Shown piece after piece: positions 3,175 to 37,104 of a stretch of 64,000 nucleotides of DNA. Location: assembly GCF_055900595.2 (NCBI RefSeq), contig NZ_CM148325.1; one strand, 5' to 3'. The notes under the pieces were generated by a model that was given only the letters and a program-made list of their open reading frames with translations, was not told the origin of the DNA and made no database searches. Both the position numbers and the translations under genes were made by a program. Position 1 is the stretch's first letter. Each line of letters begins with the position of its first letter.

Positions 3175-3177
3175 ACG

Positions 3178-3290
<113 letters not shown>

Positions 3291-3366
3291 CGCGGTGTAA
3301 ATAACGACAAATATAAAATTGGCCGTTTCGGTCAGGGCCAACTATTGCCTGAAAAAGGGTAACGAC

Positions 3367-4737
3367 ATGAAAAAATTAACCTGCTTTAAAGCCTATGATA
3401 TTCGTGGAAAATTAGGCGAAGAACTGAATGAAGATATTGCCTGGCGCATTGGTCGCGCTTATGGCGAATTTCTCAAACCGAAAACCATTGTGTTAGGCGG
3501 TGATGTCCGCCTCACCAGCGAAACCTTAAAACTGGCGCTGGCGAAAGGTTTACAGGATGCGGGCGTCGATGTGCTGGATATTGGCATGTCCGGCACCGAA
3601 GAGATCTATTTCGCCACGTTCCATCTCGGTGTGGATGGCGGCATTGAAGTTACCGCCAGCCATAATCCGATGGATTATAACGGCATGAAGCTGGTGCGCG
3701 AAGGGGCTCGCCCGATCAGCGGTGATACCGGACTGCGCGATGTCCAGCGTCTGGCAGAAGCCAACGACTTTCCTCCCGTTGATGAAACCAAACGCGGTCG
3801 CTATCAGCAAATCAATCTGCGTGACGCTTACGTTGATCACCTGTTCGGTTATATCAACGTCAAAAACCTCACGCCGCTCAAGCTGGTGATCAACTCCGGG
3901 AACGGCGCAGCGGGTCCGGTGGTGGACGCTATCGAAGCCCGCTTTAACGCCCTCGGCGCTCCGGTGGAATTAATCAAAGTGCACAACACGCCGGACGGCA
4001 ATTTCCCCAACGGTATTCCTAACCCGCTGCTGCCGGAATGCCGCGACGACACCCGCAATGCGGTCATCAAACACGGCGCGGATATGGGCATTGCCTTTGA
4101 TGGCGATTTTGACCGCTGCTTCCTGTTTGACGAAAAAGGGCAGTTTATCGAAGGCTACTACATTGTCGGCCTGCTGGCAGAAGCGTTCCTCGAAAAAAAT
4201 CCCGGCGCGAAGATCATCCACGATCCACGTCTCTCCTGGAACACCGTTGATGTGGTGACTGCCGCTGGCGGCACGCCGGTGATGTCGAAAACCGGACACG
4301 CCTTTATTAAAGAACGTATGCGCAAGGAAGACGCCATCTACGGTGGCGAAATGAGCGCCCACCATTACTTCCGTGATTTCGCTTACTGCGACAGCGGCAT
4401 GATCCCGTGGCTGCTGGTCGCCGAACTGGTGTGCCTGAAAGATAAAACGCTGGGCGAACTGGTACGCGACCGGATGGCGGCGTTTCCGGCAAGCGGTGAG
4501 ATCAACAGCAAACTGGCGCAACCCGTTGAGGCGATTAACCGCGTGGAACAGCATTTTAGCCGTGAGGCGCTGGCGGTGGATCGCACCGATGGCATCAGCA
4601 TGACCTTTGCCGACTGGCGCTTTAACCTGCGCTCCTCCAACACCGAACCGGTGGTGCGGTTGAATGTGGAATCGCGCGGTGATGTGCCGCTGATGGAAGC
4701 GCGAACGCGAACTCTGCTGGCGTTGCTGAACGAGTAA
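3367..4737 (+). CDS. cpsG: Phosphomannomutase
   Basis: ORF 3319..4737; start chosen at the internal [14 protein letters not shown]; phosphohexomutase active-site context (TASHNP). Confidence 0.92.
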
Positions 4738-4791
4738 TGTCGGATCTTCCCTTACCCCATTGCGGGTAAGGGGCTAATAACAGGAACAACG

Positions 4792-6186
4792 ATGACAAAT
4801 CTAAAAAAGCGCGAGCGAGCGAAAACCAATGCATCGTTAATCTCTATGGTGCAACGCTTTTCAGATATCACCATCATGTTTGCCGGACTATGGCTGGTTT
4901 GCGAAGTGAGCGGACTGTCATTCCTCTACATGCACCTGTTGGTGGCGCTGATTACGCTGGTGGTGTTCCAGATGCTGGGCGGCATCACCGATTTTTATCG
5001 CTCATGGCGCGGTGTTCGGGCAGCGACAGAATTTGCCCTGTTGCTACAAAACTGGACCTTAAGCGTGATTTTCAGCGCCGGACTGGTGGCGTTCAACAAT
5101 GATTTCGACACGCAACTGAAAATCTGGCTGGCGTGGTATGGGCTGACCAGCATCGGACTGGTGGTTTGCCGTTCATGTATTCGCATTGGGGCGGGCTGGC
5201 TGCGTAATCATGGCTATAACAAGCGCATGGTCGCGGTGGCGGGGGATTTAGCCGCCGGACAAATGCTGATGGAGAGCTTCCGTAATCAGCCGTGGTTAGG
5301 GTTTGAAGTGGTGGGTATATACCACGACCCGAAACCGGGCGGCGTTTCTAACGACTGGGCGGGCAATCTGCAACAGCTGGTCGAGGATGCGAAAGCGGGC
5401 AAGATTCATAACGTCTATATCGCGATGCAAATGTGCGACGGCGCGCGAGTGAAAAAACTGGTCCATCAACTGGCGGACACCACCTGTTCGGTGCTGCTGA
5501 TCCCCGATGTCTTTACCTTCAACATTCTCCATTCACGTCTCGAAGAGATGAACGGCGTTCCGGTGGTGCCGCTTTACGACACGCCGCTTTCCGGGGTTAA
5601 CCGCCTGCTCAAACGTGCGGAAGACATTGTGCTGGCGACGCTTATCCTGCTGCTGATCTCTCCGGTGCTGTGCTGTATTGCGCTGGCGGTGAAACTCAGT
5701 TCACCAGGACCGGTTATTTTCCGCCAGACTCGCTATGGCATGGATGGTAAACCGATCAAAGTGTGGAAGTTTCGTTCCATGAAAGTGATGGAGAACGACA
5801 AAGTCGTGACTCAGGCGACGCAGAACGATCCGCGCGTCACCAAAGTGGGGAACTTTCTGCGCCGCACCTCGCTGGATGAATTGCCGCAGTTTATCAATGT
5901 GCTGACCGGCGGGATGTCGATTGTCGGGCCACGTCCACACGCGGTGGCGCATAACGAACAGTATCGACAGCTCATTGAAGGCTACATGCTGCGCCATAAG
6001 GTGAAACCGGGCATTACCGGCTGGGCGCAGATTAACGGCTGGCGCGGCGAAACCGACACACTGGAGAAAATGGAAAAACGCGTCGAGTTCGACCTTGAGT
6101 ACATCCGCGAATGGAGCGTCTGGTTCGATATCAAAATCGTTTTCCTGACGGTGTTCAAAGGTTTCGTTAACAAAGCGGCATATTGA
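4792..6186 (+). CDS. wcaJ: Undecaprenyl-phosphate glucose phosphotransferase (colanic acid initiating transferase)
   Basis: 464-aa ORF with N-terminal TM segments and a C-terminal sugar-transferase domain (PRPHAV...GWAQING). Confidence 0.92.
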   Translation: MTNLKKRERAKTNASLISMVQRFSDITIMFAGLWLVCEVSGLSFLYMHLLVALITLVVFQMLGGITDFYRSWRGVRAATEFALLLQNWTLSVIFSAGLVAFNNDFDTQLKIWLAWYGLTSIGLVVCRSCIRIGAGWLRNHGYNKRMVAVAGDLAAGQMLMESFRNQPWLGFEVVGIYHDPKPGGVSNDWAGNLQQLVEDAKAGKIHNVYIAMQMCDGARVKKLVHQLADTTCSVLLIPDVFTFNILHSRLEEMNGVPVVPLYDTPLSGVNRLLKRAEDIVLATLILLLISPVLCCIALAVKLSSPGPVIFRQTRYGMDGKPIKVWKFRSMKVMENDKVVTQATQNDPRVTKVGNFLRRTSLDELPQFINVLTGGMSIVGPRPHAVAHNEQYRQLIEGYMLRHKVKPGITGWAQINGWRGETDTLEKMEKRVEFDLEYIREWSVWFDIKIVFLTVFKGFVNKAAY

Positions 6187-6187
6187 T

Positions 6188-7666
6188 ATGAGCTTACGTG
6201 AAAAAACCATCAGCGGCGCGAAGTGGTCGGCGATTGCCACGGTGATCATCATCGGCCTCGGGCTGGTGCAGATGACCGTGCTGGCGCGGATTATCGACAA
6301 CCACCAGTTCGGCTTGCTGACTGTGTCGCTGGTAATCATCGCGCTGGCAGATACGCTTTCTGACTTCGGTATCGCTAACTCCATTATTCAGCGAAAAGAA
6401 ATCAGTCACCTGGAACTTACCACGTTGTACTGGCTGAACGTCGGGCTGGGGCTTGTGGTGTGCGTGGCGGTGTTTTTGTTGAGTGATGCCATTGGTGACG
6501 TGCTGAATAACCCGGACCTAGCACCGTTGATTAAAACATTGTCGCTGGCGTTTGTGGTGATCCCCCACGGGCAGCAGTTCCGCGCGTTGATGCAGAAGGA
6601 GCTGGAGTTCAACAAAATCGGCATGATCGAAACCAGCGCGGTGCTGGCGGGCTTCACTTTTACGGTGGTTAGCGCCCATTTCTGGCCGCTGGCGATGACC
6701 GCGATCCTCGGTTATCTGGTCAATAGTGCGGTGAGAACGCTGCTGTTTGGCTACTTTGGTCGAAAAATTTATCGCCCCGGTCTACATTTCTCGCTGGCGT
6801 CGGTGGCACCGAACTTACGCTTTGGTGCCTGGCTGACGGCGGACAGCATCATCAACTATCTCAACACCAACCTTTCAACGCTGGTGCTGGCGCGTATTCT
6901 CGGCGCGGGCGTGGCAGGGGGCTACAACCTGGCTTACAACGTGGCCGTTGTGCCGCCGATGAAGCTGAACCCCATCATCACCCGCGTGTTATTTCCGGCA
7001 TTCGCCAAAATTCAGGACGACACCGAAAAGCTGCGCGTGAACTTCTACAAGCTGCTGTCGGTGGTGGGGATTATCAACTTTCCGGCGCTGCTCGGGCTGA
7101 TGGTGGTGTCGAATAACTTTGTACCGCTGGTCTTTGGTGAGAAGTGGAACAGCATTATTCCGGTGCTGCAATTGCTGTGTGTGGTGGGTCTGCTGCGTTC
7201 CGTAGGTAACCCGATTGGTTCGCTGCTGATGGCGAAAGCGCGGGTCGATATCAGCTTTAAATTCAACGTATTCAAAACCTTTCTGTTTGTTCCGGCGATT
7301 GTTATTGGTGGGCAGATGGCGGGCGCAATCGGCGTCACGCTCGGTTTCCTGTTGGTGCAGATTATCAACACCATTCTGAGTTACTTCGTGATGATTAAAC
7401 CGGTTCTTGGTTCCAGTTATCGCCAGTACATCCTGAGTTTGTGGCTGCCGTTTTATCTCTCGCTGCCGACGCTGGTGGTCAGTTATGTGCTGGGCATTGT
7501 GCTGAAAGGGCAACTGGCGCTGGGGATGCTGCTGGCGGTGCAAATAGCCGCGGGCGTGCTGGCGTTTGTGGTGATGATTGTGCCGTCGCGCCATCCGCTG
7601 GTGGTGGAAGTGAAGCGTCAGTTTTGTCGCAGCGAAAAAATGAAAATGCTTTTACGGGCGGGGTGA
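6188..7666 (+). CDS. wzxC: Colanic acid flippase (Wzx-type)
   Basis: 492-aa polytopic membrane ORF in the conserved position after wcaJ. Confidence 0.9.
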   Translation: MSLREKTISGAKWSAIATVIIIGLGLVQMTVLARIIDNHQFGLLTVSLVIIALADTLSDFGIANSIIQRKEISHLELTTLYWLNVGLGLVVCVAVFLLSDAIGDVLNNPDLAPLIKTLSLAFVVIPHGQQFRALMQKELEFNKIGMIETSAVLAGFTFTVVSAHFWPLAMTAILGYLVNSAVRTLLFGYFGRKIYRPGLHFSLASVAPNLRFGAWLTADSIINYLNTNLSTLVLARILGAGVAGGYNLAYNVAVVPPMKLNPIITRVLFPAFAKIQDDTEKLRVNFYKLLSVVGIINFPALLGLMVVSNNFVPLVFGEKWNSIIPVLQLLCVVGLLRSVGNPIGSLLMAKARVDISFKFNVFKTFLFVPAIVIGGQMAGAIGVTLGFLLVQIINTILSYFVMIKPVLGSSYRQYILSLWLPFYLSLPTLVVSYVLGIVLKGQLALGMLLAVQIAAGVLAFVVMIVPSRHPLVVEVKRQFCRSEKMKMLLRAG

Positions 7667-7689
7667 GTTGTTGTTTTCGGTTCCGACAA

Positions 7690-8172
7690 CGGTTGCCGGG
7701 TGCAGCGTAAAACGCCTTATCCATCCTACGGTTCTGTGCTCGGGACCTGTAGGCCTGATAAGACGCGTCAGCGTCGCATCAGGCACTGAATGCCGGATGC
7801 GGTGTGAACGCCTTATCCGGCCTACGGTTCAGGGCTTGGATCTTGTAGGCCCGATAAGACGCGCCAGCGTCGCATCAGGCACTGAATGCCGGATGCGGCG
7901 TAAAACGCCTTATCCGGCCTACGGTTCTGTGCTCGGGTCTTGTAGGCCTGATAAGACGCGCCAGCGTCGCATCAGGCACTGAATGCCGGATGCGGCGTGA
8001 ACGCCTTATCCATCCTACGGTTCTGTGCTCGGGACCTGTAGGCCTGATAAGACGCGTCAGCGTCGCATCAGGCACTGAATGCCGGATGCGGCGTGAACGC
8101 CTTATCCGGCCTACGGTTCTGTGCTTGGATCTTGTAGGCCTGATAAGAGGCGTCAGCGTCGCATCAGGCAAA
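7690..8172. repeat. Tandem REP/BIME array, about 5 copies of a unit of roughly 98 bp
   Basis: Repeated gccggatgcggcgtgaacgccttatccggcctacggttctgtgctcggg...tgtaggcctgataagacgcg.cagcgtcgcatcaggcactgaat units seen directly; six-frame ORFs here are repeat artefacts. Confidence 0.8.
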
Positions 8173-8230
8173 AAGCGGCAACGAACAAAACAAACGCAGC
8201 CTCACCTGGCATCAAATTTATGAGGAAAAA

Positions 8231-9511
8231 ATGAAATTACTTATTCTGGGCAACCACACTTGCGGCAATCGTGGCGACAGCGCCATCCTGCGCGGCTTAC
8301 TTGATGCCATCAACATCCTCAATCCACAAGCCGAAGTGGACGTGATGAGCCGCTATCCGGTCAGTTCTTCCTGGCTGCTCAACCGCCCGGTAATGGGTGA
8401 TCCGCTGTTCCTTCAAATGAAACAACACAACAGCGCGGCGGGCGTTGTCGGGCGCGTTAAAAAAGTCCTCCGTCGCCGCTATCAGCACCAGGTACTGCTC
8501 TCGCGCGTCACCGACACTGGCAAGCTGCGTAATATCGCCATCGCCCAGGGATTCACCGACTTCGTGCGCCTGCTGTCAGGTTACGACGCCATTATCCAGG
8601 TCGGCGGATCGTTTTTTGTCGATCTCTATGGCGTGCCGCAGTTTGAACATGCACTTTGCACGTTTATGGCGAAAAAGCCGCTGTTTATGATTGGTCACAG
8701 TGTTGGCCCGTTCCAGGATGAGCAATTTAACCAACTGGCGAACTATGTTTTTGGTCACTGTGACGCGCTGATCCTGCGCGAATCGGTCAGCCTTGATTTG
8801 ATGAAACGCAGCAATATCACCACTGCAAAAGTGGAACATGGCGTCGATACTGCGTGGCTGGTCGATCACCACACCGAAGATTTCACCGCCAGCTATGCCG
8901 TCCAACACTGGCTGGACGTTGCCGCACAACAGAAAACGGTGGCAATTACCCTGCGCGAACTGGCACCGTTCGACAAACGTCTCGGCACCACTCAACAAGC
9001 GTATGAAAAAGCCTTTGCCGGGGTGGTCAATCGCATTCTCGACGAAGGCTATCAGGTTATTGCGCTCTCCACCTGTACGGGTATCGACAGCTATAACAAA
9101 GACGACCGCATGGTGGCGCTCAACCTGCGCCAGCACATCAGCGATCCTGCCCGTTACCACGTAGTGATGGATGAACTCAACGATCTGGAAATGGGCAAAA
9201 TTCTCGGAGCCTGTGAACTCACCGTCGGTACGCGCCTGCACTCCGCCATTATCTCAATGAACTTTGCTACTCCGGCGATTGCCATCAATTATGAACATAA
9301 ATCCGCCGGGATTATGCAGCAGCTGGGACTACCGGAGATGGCAATTGATATCCGTCATTTATTAGACGGCAGCCTGCAAGCGATGGTTGCGGATACCTTA
9401 GGCCAGCTTCCGGCGCTGAACGCACGACTTAGCGAAGCCGTCAGTCGTGAGCGTCAGACGGGAATGCAGATGGTGCAGTCCGTACTGGAACGCATCGGGG
9501 AGGTGAAATGA
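8231..9511 (+). CDS. wcaK: Colanic acid biosynthesis pyruvyl transferase WcaK
   Basis: 426-aa ORF, conserved wca position; stop overlaps the wcaL start. Confidence 0.9.
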   Translation: MKLLILGNHTCGNRGDSAILRGLLDAINILNPQAEVDVMSRYPVSSSWLLNRPVMGDPLFLQMKQHNSAAGVVGRVKKVLRRRYQHQVLLSRVTDTGKLRNIAIAQGFTDFVRLLSGYDAIIQVGGSFFVDLYGVPQFEHALCTFMAKKPLFMIGHSVGPFQDEQFNQLANYVFGHCDALILRESVSLDLMKRSNITTAKVEHGVDTAWLVDHHTEDFTASYAVQHWLDVAAQQKTVAITLRELAPFDKRLGTTQQAYEKAFAGVVNRILDEGYQVIALSTCTGIDSYNKDDRMVALNLRQHISDPARYHVVMDELNDLEMGKILGACELTVGTRLHSAIISMNFATPAIAINYEHKSAGIMQQLGLPEMAIDIRHLLDGSLQAMVADTLGQLPALNARLSEAVSRERQTGMQMVQSVLERIGEVK

Positions 9512-13201: not shown

Positions 13202-13485
13202 TGAAATCTGACCGGATGTAACGGTTGATAAGAAAATTATAACGGCAGTGAAGATTCGTGGCGAAAGTAATTTGTTGCGAATATTCCTGCCGTTGTTTTA
13301 TATAAACAATCAGAATAACAACGAGTTAGCAATAGGATTTTAGTCAAAGTTTTCCAGGATTTTCCTTGTTTCCAGAGCGGATTGGTAAGACAATTAGCGT
13401 TTGAATTTTTCGAGCTAAGCGCGAGTGGGTAACGCTCGTCACATCGTAGACATGCATGCAGTGCACTGGTAGCTGTAAAGCCTGG

Positions 13486-13497
13486 GGCGGTAGCGTG
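13486..13497 (+). promoter_or_regulatory. ops element (GGCGGTAGCGTG) within a JUMPstart-like region upstream of the O-antigen operon
   Basis: Exact ggcggtagcgtg seen in the galF-distal intergenic region; the known RfaH recruitment site of polysaccharide operons. Confidence 0.65.
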
Positions 13498-13649: not shown

Positions 13650-14786
13650 ATGGAACTTAAAAAATTGATGGAACATATTTCTGTTATTCCCGATTACAGA
13701 CAAGCCTGGAAAGTGGAATATAATTTGTCGGATATTCTACTGTTGACTATTTGTGCCGTCATTTCTGGTGCAGAAGGCTGGGAAGATATAGAGGATTTTG
13801 GGGAAACACATCTCGATTTTTTGAAGCAATATGGTGATTTTGAAAATGGTATTCCTGTTCACGATACCATTGCCAGAGTTGTATCCTGTATCAGTCCTGC
13901 AAAATTTCACGAGTGCTTTATTAACTGGATGCGTGACTGCCATTCTTCAGATGATAAAGACGTCATTGCAATTGATGGAAAAACGCTCCGGCACTCTTAT
14001 GACAAGAGTCGCCGCAGGGGAGCGATTCATGTCATTAGTGCGTTCTCAACAATGCACAGTCTGGTCATCGGACAGATCAGGACGGATGAGAAATCCAATG
14101 AGATTACAGCTATCCCTGAACTTATTAACATGCTGGATATTAAAGGAAAAATCATCACAACTGATGCGATGGGTTGCCAGAAAGATATTGCAGAGAAGAT
14201 ACAAAAACAGGGAGGTGATTATTTATTCGCTGTAAAAGGAAACCAGGGGCGGCTAAATAAAGCCTTTGAGGAAAAATTTCCGCTGAAAGAATTAAATAAT
14301 CCAGAGCATGACAGTTACGCAATGAGTGAAAAGAGTCACGGCAGAGAAGAAATCCGTCTTCATATTGTTTGCGATGTCCCTGATGAACTTATTGATTTCA
14401 CGTTTGAATGGAAAGGACTGAAAAAATTATGTGTGGCAGCCTCCTTTCGGTCAATAATAGCAGAACAAAAGAAAGAGCCAGAAATGACGGTCAGATATTA
14501 TATCAGTTCTGCTGATTTAACCGCAGAGAAGTTCGCCACAGCAATCCGAAACCACTGGCACGTGGAGAATAAGCTGCACTGGCGTCTGGACGTGGTAATG
14601 AATGAAGACGACTGCAAAATAAGAAGAGGAAATGCAGCAGAATTATTTTCAGGGATACGGCACATCGCTATTAATATTTTGACGAATGATAAGGTATTCA
14701 AGGCAGGGTTAAGACGTAAGATGCGAAAAGCAGCCATGGACAGAAACTATCTGGCGTCAGTCCTTGCGGGGAGCGGGCTTTCGTAA
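13650..14786 (+). CDS. ISAs1-family transposase (Rhs H-repeat-associated protein)
   Basis: 378-aa ORF with the H-repeat/ISAs1 transposase signature as I recall it (…[10 protein letters not shown]…, …AVKGNQGRL…, …[15 protein letters not shown]…); GC lower than flanking core. Confidence 0.85.
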
Positions 14787-34614: not shown

Positions 34615-34835
34615 AAAAGTCTCTGTGAATGTTTATTCAACTGATGTCTTTTAACCTAAACCACTTTCACGTTAGAAAGCAAGGGCTTTTTTATATATTT
34701 TATGGCGATGGATTTGTTTAATGAATGAGCGGGGAAAGGAGGGGCCTGGAGTGACTATGTTAGAAAAGTAATCGTGAAAATATGTCTTTAAAATCCTCAA
34801 GAACATTGTGTTCTGTAACTAAAGTGGGCTTTGTT

Positions 34836-34932
34836 CCTGCCGGATGCGGCGTGAATGCCTTATCAGGTCTACAAATGTTGCCTAAATTCAATATATTGAT
34901 GTTTTGTAGGACTGATAAGCGGAGCGCATCAG
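34836..34932. repeat. REP/BIME palindromic elements between the his leader and yeeZ
   Basis: gccggatgcggcgtgaatgccttatcagg and cctgatgcgctccgcttatcag type motifs in inverted orientation. Confidence 0.6.
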
Positions 34933-35038
34933 GCAATGGTATATTTGCTAACAGTTTCGATTTCATTCATAGAATGAATTGTCAGTTTTGATACGCTAGC
35001 GTAGCCTTATAGATCTAAGGTGTATCAGGAGATAACGG

Positions 35039-36838: not shown

Positions 36839-36920
36839 AGAAAAATTATTATGACAAGCCTCTCATTCTCTTGTCATTTCCCCCCCATTTAGGCACAATG
36901 CGCCGCTGTCAAAAAATGAC

Positions 36921-36957
36921 TAAAAACCGACGTTTCATCAGCGTCGGTTATTTTTTG
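36921..36957 (+). terminator. Rho-independent terminator after yeeY
   Basis: accgacg...cgtcggt hairpin followed by a T-run. Confidence 0.6.
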
Positions 36958-37104
36958 CTTCAAACCAATCATTCATACCAAGAGGCCGGGCTTCGTACCG
37001 GATAGATATTTACTAAAAATCGACAGTTGTTGTCGCTGAGGAATCCAAAAAAATGGGGCAATTTTTTGCTTACGCGACGGTTATCACCGTAAAGGAGAAT
37101 GACC

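Follow-up and report, generated by a model that had tools for sequence, protein, structure and literature searches.

A strain-variable BIME-2 array of ten REPs in the wzxC-wcaK gap of the Escherichia coli colanic-acid operon

Among REP-built elements, BIME-1 pairs one z1 with one y REP across a long, conserved L linker, in which an IHF site is often found, whereas BIME-2 is a tandem element with several copies of z2 and y REPs, joined by a short S linker and s/l/r flanking motifs, and its copy number at each locus varies among strains (PMC3333891). The closest analogue of the array described here is REP325, a 12-REP BIME-2 within the yjdM-yjdN operon of E. coli K-12 (PMC4550694; bioRxiv 10.64898/2026.03.23.713779). 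When REP325 is deleted, the mRNA ratio of yjdM to yjdN drops from roughly 35 to roughly 1, as expression of the downstream gene rises 8-10-fold and the upstream mRNA falls; the intact array yields a ladder of hairpin-ended transcripts, read-through increases from 23% to 39% with bicyclomycin, and Rho dependence is found only with the full set of 12 hairpins, not with 2-4 (Harris et al., bioRxiv 10.64898/2026.03.23.713779). According to the same study, REP effects are context-dependent and variable genome-wide, tandem gene pairs have a higher upstream/downstream expression ratio when a REP lies between the genes, and in 2026 nucleoid compaction was not seen for REP325, contrary to the compaction model. 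At the junction of wzxC and wcaK, O157 strains differ by two or four REPs, and a recombination junction has been placed in the same spacer (Iguchi et al. 2011, PMC3158064). The kind of element, the variability of its copy number, and REP polymorphism at this junction are already in the literature (BIME-2s since the 1990s, the insertions and deletions since 2011).

The array lies within a stretch of 64,000 nucleotides (the window), in which the spacer between wzxC and wcaK (7667-8230) measures 564 bp. Both genes are among the listed open reading frames, and their names are taken from the RefSeq annotation of matching genomes, including strain PK8276, which is 100% identical to the 1301 bases around the array and 99.6% identical to the window over its first 34.7 kb. 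With that 1301-bp query, 32 RefSeq records are matched at 99% identity or more, and the exact allele is thus present in RefSeq genomes. The array is a BIME-2, non-coding and built of ten REP palindromes. It lies in the distal part of the colanic-acid operon, where no other untranslated gap is long. Its features are as follows.

6188-7666, plus strand: wzxC, colanic acid flippase, the upstream gene (TGA stop at 7664-7666)
7667-7693, plus strand: left flank of the array, from comparison with a 71-bp empty allele
7667-7679, plus strand: left arm of a flanking inverted repeat, GTTGTTGTTTTCG, from the same comparison
7684-7692, plus strand: left copy of a short direct repeat, CGACAACGG, a 9-mer present only once in the 71-bp empty allele
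7694-8170, plus strand: BIME-2 array, five units of 96-97 nt (Tandem Repeats Finder, unit dissection, and the BIME-2 definition of PMC3333891)
7695-7729, plus strand: Y1, a degenerate Y-type REP (GCCGGGTGCAGCG...CCATCCTAC) with a weak hairpin (-8.6 kcal/mol, z = -1.1)
7749-7784, minus strand: Z2-type REP 1, 0 mismatches to the REP consensus
7792-7825, plus strand: Y-type REP 2, 97% identical to the Y consensus
7845-7880, minus strand: Z2-type REP 2, 1 mismatch to the REP consensus
7888-7922, plus strand: Y-type REP 3, 35 nt, the loop being one A longer, which makes a 97-nt unit
7942-7977, minus strand: Z2-type REP 3, 0 mismatches to the REP consensus
7985-8018, plus strand: Y-type REP 4, with the CCATCC variant of Y1
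8038-8073, minus strand: Z2-type REP 4, RNA hairpin of -20.5 kcal/mol
8081-8114, plus strand: Y-type REP 5, equal to the consensus, hairpin of -21.3 kcal/mol
8134-8169, minus strand: Z2-type REP 5, the final REP of the array, 1 mismatch to the REP consensus
8171-8230, plus strand: right flank of the array
8176-8184, plus strand: right copy of the direct repeat, CGGCAACGA
8182-8195, plus strand: degenerate right arm of the flanking inverted repeat
7 nt before the wcaK ATG, plus strand: GAGG, the wcaK ribosome-binding site
8231-9511, plus strand: wcaK, pyruvyl transferase, the downstream gene; wcaL and wcaM come next, also on the plus strand

Tandem Repeats Finder reports a single array with a period of 96 (alternatively 193), 4.9 copies, 90% matches, 0 indels, and a score of 775, which takes up 85% of the spacer. 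Each unit reads, on the plus strand, a Y-type REP (consensus GCCGGATGCGGCGTGAACGCCTTATCCGGCCTAC), a 19-nt head-to-head linker (GGTTCTGTGCTCGGGTCTT and variants), an inverted Z2-type REP (GTAGGCCTGATAAGACGCGYCAGCGTCGCATCAGGC), and a 7-nt tail-to-tail linker (ACTGAAT), so that the whole is (Y-S-Z2-s) x 5, with five Y REPs on the plus strand strictly alternating with five inverted Z2 REPs on the minus strand; all ten were found by blastn-short against the Y and Z2 consensus sequences, which was used alongside Hamming scans. The Stern-type REP consensus is matched six times in the window, where 0.00 matches are expected by chance, and five of the six fall inside the array. A search for inverted repeats at 7600-8260 returned 0 pairs, the tool being one that misses short imperfect stems, and the REPs were found by consensus matching and folding instead. 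Self-comparison gives 94.7% identity at an offset of about 290 bp, 91.6% at 193 bp, and 90.3% at 97 bp; the best match at about 290 bp suggests that units 4-5 are a recent copy of units 1-2, arising from a duplication of about three units. An earlier note on this DNA had described a tandem REP/BIME array in the wzxC-wcaK gap of the colanic-acid operon, and the consensus matches, the linkers, and the periodicity all bear this out. The same note had about five units of roughly 98 bp at 7668-8223: the number of units stands, but the unit is 96-97 nt, and 7668-8223 are the outer ends of open reading frames, the array itself occupying 7694-8170. The RefSeq record of MG1655 has no REP features in the wzxC-wcaK stretch, and therefore no official REP number can be assigned.

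REP is the non-coding palindromic repeat that is commonest in E. coli. The REPs here are imperfect palindromes of 34-36 nt with a GTAG/CTAC foot, extragenic, and of a family with many copies, a REP-containing query having matched a median of at least 30 places per E. coli genome. In the Gilson/Bachellier classification (Ton-Hoang et al. 2012, PMC3333891), the array shares with the BIME-2 family its REPs, the alternation of Y with inverted Z2, short linkers (19 nt and 7 nt, judged by length), conserved tandem units of strain-variable number, and an extragenic position; nothing of substance sets it apart, the tail-to-tail linker being the short one of 7 nt, and ten REPs place it near the upper end of the K-12 BIME-2 size range. 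Elements of the BIME-1, RIP, or RIB type are also built of REPs, but have one Y REP per element in a single Y-L-Z1 copy, whereas here the partner is Z2, and neither Z1, a long L linker, nor an IHF consensus occurs in the array. The suggestion that the array binds IHF is thus wrong for the class, because the IHF site is a trait of the BIME-1 L linker (PMC3333891), and a motif search for the IHF consensus WATCAANNNNTTR found none in 7667-8230. A CRISPR-like array was considered and rejected, as the units abut without unique spacers.

Other REP-built elements occur in the window. One that resembles BIME-1 lies between hisL and yeeZ (34745-34962), at 34839-34934, with a Y REP at 34839-34872, a 33-nt AT-rich linker, and Z1 at 34906-34934; PK8276 has about 440 bp extra between hisL and yeeZ, including a yefM-yoeB toxin-antitoxin pair. 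A further small REP cluster (3176-3276; partial Z2, Y, Z2) is found in the cpsB-cpsG spacer, followed, just upstream of cpsG, by a match to the Rfam algC RNA motif (3313-3362, 77.5 bits).

The claim that copy number is likely to vary among strains was followed up across genomes with a query made of the two flanking gene ends only (800 bp of the wzxC 3' end and the wcaK 5' end), by which the repeat was avoided, the spacer length being taken from the span of each match. Matches were obtained in 4653 of 5426 complete E. coli genomes. The spacer classes were counted in an evenly spaced sample with 59 informative rows, and the content of each class was confirmed on fetched loci.

70-72 bp: no REP, 6 rows
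145 bp: one fused REP remnant, 2 rows
161 bp: a different repeat, 3 rows
179 bp: 2 REPs, for example O157:H7, 8 rows
275-284 bp: 4 REPs, for example K-12 (275 bp), 22 rows
359 bp: array partly deleted, 1 row
371-372 bp: 6 REPs, 4 rows
468 bp: 8 REPs, 4 rows
563-565 bp: 10 REPs, the allele of the window, 5 rows
660-663 bp: 12 REPs, for example LF82, 4 rows

The prediction holds, with alleles of 0, 2, 4, 6, 8, 10, and 12 REPs, about 10% of the sampled genomes being without a REP at the junction and 5% having an unrelated repeat. The comparison of Iguchi et al. 2011 (PMC3158064) covered six strains, whereas the series now runs from 0 to 12 REPs, with an unrelated-repeat allele besides, across approximately 4,650 complete genomes. 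All E. coli arrays share the same boundaries, starting after ...CAACGGT and ending before AAAAA, and spacer lengths step by whole units of 96-97 nt (179 + n x 96 bp), both of which point to a single insertion followed by expansion and contraction in place. Linker variants are shuffled among positions in different strains, as would be expected from unequal exchange or conversion between units. No megablast match to the flank query was obtained in 773 of the 5426 genomes, and in about 15% of the records sampled from a first search, the top REP match was at another place in the genome; such strains may lack part of the colanic-acid cluster or have replaced it.

The long spacer is itself derived. 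A pattern scan with one genome per species covered at least 120 loci, with wzxC directly upstream of wcaK in 73 of those listed; among these 73 species of Enterobacteriaceae the spacer has a median of 30 bp and is usually 13-30 bp. In 39 of the 73 listed species it is at most 30 bp and holds little beyond a AAGAGGTCAT-like ribosome-binding sequence, and in 20 of the 73 it exceeds 70 bp and is filled by other small palindromic repeats: REP pairs in Citrobacter, G/C-rich CCCTCTCCC...GGGAGAGGG elements in Enterobacter, Lelliottia, Kosakonia, Pluralibacter, and Buttiauxella, and, in one listed species, an element that looks like ERIC. We take boxC and ERIC to be the names of such junction repeats. 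E. coli BL21 has the G/C-rich type instead of REPs, together with an ancestral-looking ribosome-binding site. The short spacers that are usual, and the different repeat families that fill the long ones, indicate from comparison of the loci that the junction has been colonised independently several times.

In the 71-bp REP-free allele of E. coli, a perfect hairpin with a 13-bp stem (GTTGTTGTTTTCG-GTTCCGGCAA-CGAAAACAACAAC) directly follows the wzxC stop codon. Filled alleles have the array inside that hairpin, flanked by a direct repeat of 8-9 bp, CGRCAACGR (exact over 8 bp in LF82), which could either have arisen as a target duplication when the array was inserted, or be the microhomology at which a precise deletion gave rise to the empty allele. 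The gain and loss of units may be due to unequal recombination (RecA-dependent exchange), slippage, or TnpA-REP/RAYT, whose substrate is a REP with a 5' GTAG and a cleavable TGCC|TGAT (z2 iREP) as well as CT linker sites (PMC3333891); a putative TnpA-REP site, TGCCTGAT, is present on the minus strand at each of the five Z2 copies. In Escherichia sp. MOD1-EC7003, a chimeric REP array precedes wcaK (at about 4600-5060 of the fetched locus) and is fused to the 3' end of wzc (...YEYEYKSDAK, stop); the genes from wcaA to wzxC are missing and wzc looks frameshifted, and the gap is apparently a deletion by recombination between REPs after wzc and the wzxC-wcaK array.

The RNA of this region is strongly structured, the fold of 7660-8235 having a free energy of -296 kcal/mol against -214 +/- 7.7 for shuffled sequences (z = -10.7). 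Single REP hairpins have -20 to -21 kcal/mol (z about -5), except the degenerate Y1, which folds no better than its shuffles, and the 77 nt of a Z2-linker(s)-Y segment form one long hairpin of -50 kcal/mol. Y1 and Y4 share the stem-breaking CCATCC variant, and their changes are not compensatory, a pattern that suggests decay more than selection for structure. Consensus scans of the spacer found 0 promoter-like sites, so that an internal wcaK promoter is rejected, and nothing that resembles an intrinsic terminator (a GC-rich hairpin followed by a U tract), including after wzxC. The spacer RNA is not C-rich (GC skew about +0.04), and no rut-like signature is therefore visible. The closest genome has an ops element, GGCGGTAGCGTG, at which RfaH loads, in the operon leader 179 nt upstream of wza; RfaH loaded at ops should suppress Rho-dependent termination. 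Liang, Rudd and Deutscher reportedly found in 2015 that a REP acts as a translational down-regulator when its hairpin starts no more than about 15 nt past a stop codon; here 28 nt separate the wzxC stop codon, ending at 7666, from the first REP at 7695, and the array falls outside that class.

Taken together, the locus is probably best explained as a BIME-2 that expands and contracts in place within the wzxC-wcaK gap and has a regulatory part, assigned by analogy with REP325. Since there is no promoter-like or terminator-like site and the neighbouring genes are on the same strand, the array would be co-transcribed, as a 564-nt untranslated RNA forming ten or more stable hairpins. By analogy with REP325, 3'-to-5' exonucleases are most likely halted at these hairpins, so that the mRNA as far as wzxC is protected; the hairpins also most likely cause a partial and partly Rho-dependent loss of transcripts before wcaKLM, which would be greater in longer arrays; RfaH loaded at the leader ops should dampen this loss and may abolish the attenuation. 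As DNA, the array is a candidate gyrase site and not an IHF site, and the gyrase binding proposed in the earlier note is plausible. The earlier suggestion that the array separates expression of wcaKLM from that of the upstream genes is thus plausible by analogy. Like REP325, the array is a BIME-2 between same-strand genes of one operon, about 81% identical to it over 440-505 bp and matching the same Rfam model with its Z2-linker-Y units. It differs in its period (96-97 nt with a 7-nt linker, against 100 with a 13-14-nt 'l' linker in REP325), in having the opposite orientation relative to transcription, and in its setting, the REP325 operon comprising two genes with no ops or RfaH and the colanic-acid operon about 20 genes with ops. 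A functional parallel is offered by the K30 group 1 capsule cluster, in which Rahn and Whitfield are said to have described in 2003 an intercistronic stem-loop attenuator that is read through with RfaH: it reportedly is likewise a hairpin inside a JUMPStart/ops-led operon for a Wzy-dependent polysaccharide, and sets upstream against downstream expression, but it is a single hairpin after wzc and not a REP array, so the analogy is functional only. The array is dispensable, because alleles with no REP and the allele with a different repeat are common, and it is at most a modulator, given its opposite orientation, the RNA that is not C-rich, the leader ops, and the frequency of REP-free alleles.

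The serious rival to this account, possible although somewhat unlikely, is that the array is a neutral passenger, selfish or junk DNA that a permissive gap tolerates and that leaves colanic-acid expression measurably unchanged, RfaH-modified RNA polymerase reading through it and the decay of the polycistronic mRNA being set elsewhere. Such a passenger fits the common alleles with no REP or an unrelated repeat, the differing repeat families at the junction in other genera (as expected of a permissive site), the decay of some REPs such as Y1, the ops in the operon leader, and the genome-wide variability of REP effects (bioRxiv 10.64898/2026.03.23.713779), but has against it the 8-10-fold effect of a 12-REP BIME-2 in a comparable position within an operon, and the higher upstream/downstream expression ratio of REP-separated tandem gene pairs (bioRxiv 10.64898/2026.03.23.713779). 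An unlikely reading is that the array acts mainly as DNA, independently of transcription, as a strong gyrase site or topological barrier in a long and strongly inducible operon. BIME-2s are enriched in sites of gyrase cleavage, chiefly within Y REPs, of which this array has five, and the signal of these sites rises when transcription is blocked (PMC6379681); yet empty alleles are common, quinolone-induced gyrase cleavage in vivo affects only a subset of BIME-2s, 13 of which had at least three sites, and the part of the supplement text available names neither wcaK nor wzxC (PMC6379681). It is highly improbable that the array gives rise to small RNAs like naRNA4 that, together with HU, organise the nucleoid, as proposed for REP325 (PMC4550694). 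The Rfam naRNA4 family (RF02564, a model of the BIME-2 unit) has four matches above the gathering score of 59.5 bits (79.7, 75.1, 74.0, and 71.6), but all are on the minus strand, antisense to the operon, in agreement with the orientation opposite to that of REP325; on the plus (sense) strand the scores are 42-55 bits, below the gathering score, so that membership is lacking on the transcribed strand, and the compaction model itself was not reproduced in 2026 (bioRxiv 10.64898/2026.03.23.713779).

There is next to no likelihood that the three long open reading frames of the spacer (7668-7982, plus strand, 104 aa; 7875-8171, minus strand, 98 aa; 7990-8223, plus strand, 77 aa) encode genuine repeat proteins, for which their existence and a 96-nt period divisible by 3 might speak. 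They overlap one another on both strands, and the 97-nt units shift the frame; a Pfam search of the three found no family, its one sub-threshold match (E = 0.03) being noise; neither the 12 E. coli records that were inspected nor the longer stretch of PK8276 has an annotated coding sequence in the spacer; and their number and length vary with the length of the array, with none in the 0-REP and BL21 alleles. They are spurious by-products of the repeat, as the earlier note had proposed, and the Pfam search and the inspected annotations brought up no conserved coding homologues. Annotators should mask the region as a repeat and call none of the three open reading frames a gene. In strain CUPF12, a match to the REP array elsewhere in the genome underlies the annotated gene yahH, and REP-derived open reading frames are therefore sometimes annotated as proteins.

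An extension of the proposed regulatory part of this BIME-2, namely that the series of 0-12 REPs is a strain-variable rheostat, in which longer arrays terminate more transcripts before wcaK-wcaL-wcaM, and that the colonisations of the junction reflect selection for a hairpin barrier, is decidedly doubtful. If it were true, early and late colanic-acid enzymes would be made in an altered ratio when the Rcs system fires, which would change how fully repeat units are completed or pyruvylated, or how many dead-end intermediates linked to undecaprenyl build up; that unrelated palindromic repeats settled at the junction several times independently in other genera would then mean selection for a hairpin barrier and not mere permissiveness. 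Biologically, this ordinary and documented element is minor, but it is mildly useful, because strains naturally carry from 0 to 12 hairpins at one and the same site of a well-understood operon and so offer a test bed for the recent claim that attenuation and stabilisation by long REP arrays depend on array length.

Two further features of the window may be noted. An ISAs1-family transposase gene (13650-14786, from a matching genome) is located between JUMPStart/ops (13459-13497) and the first gene of an O15-type O-antigen cluster, where the insertion might affect O-antigen expression. A match to the Rfam model of the enterobacterial small RNA STnc240 (36884-36958, plus strand, 68.2 bits) falls within the coordinates of yeeY in PK8276, which are offset from those of the window after 34.7 kb.
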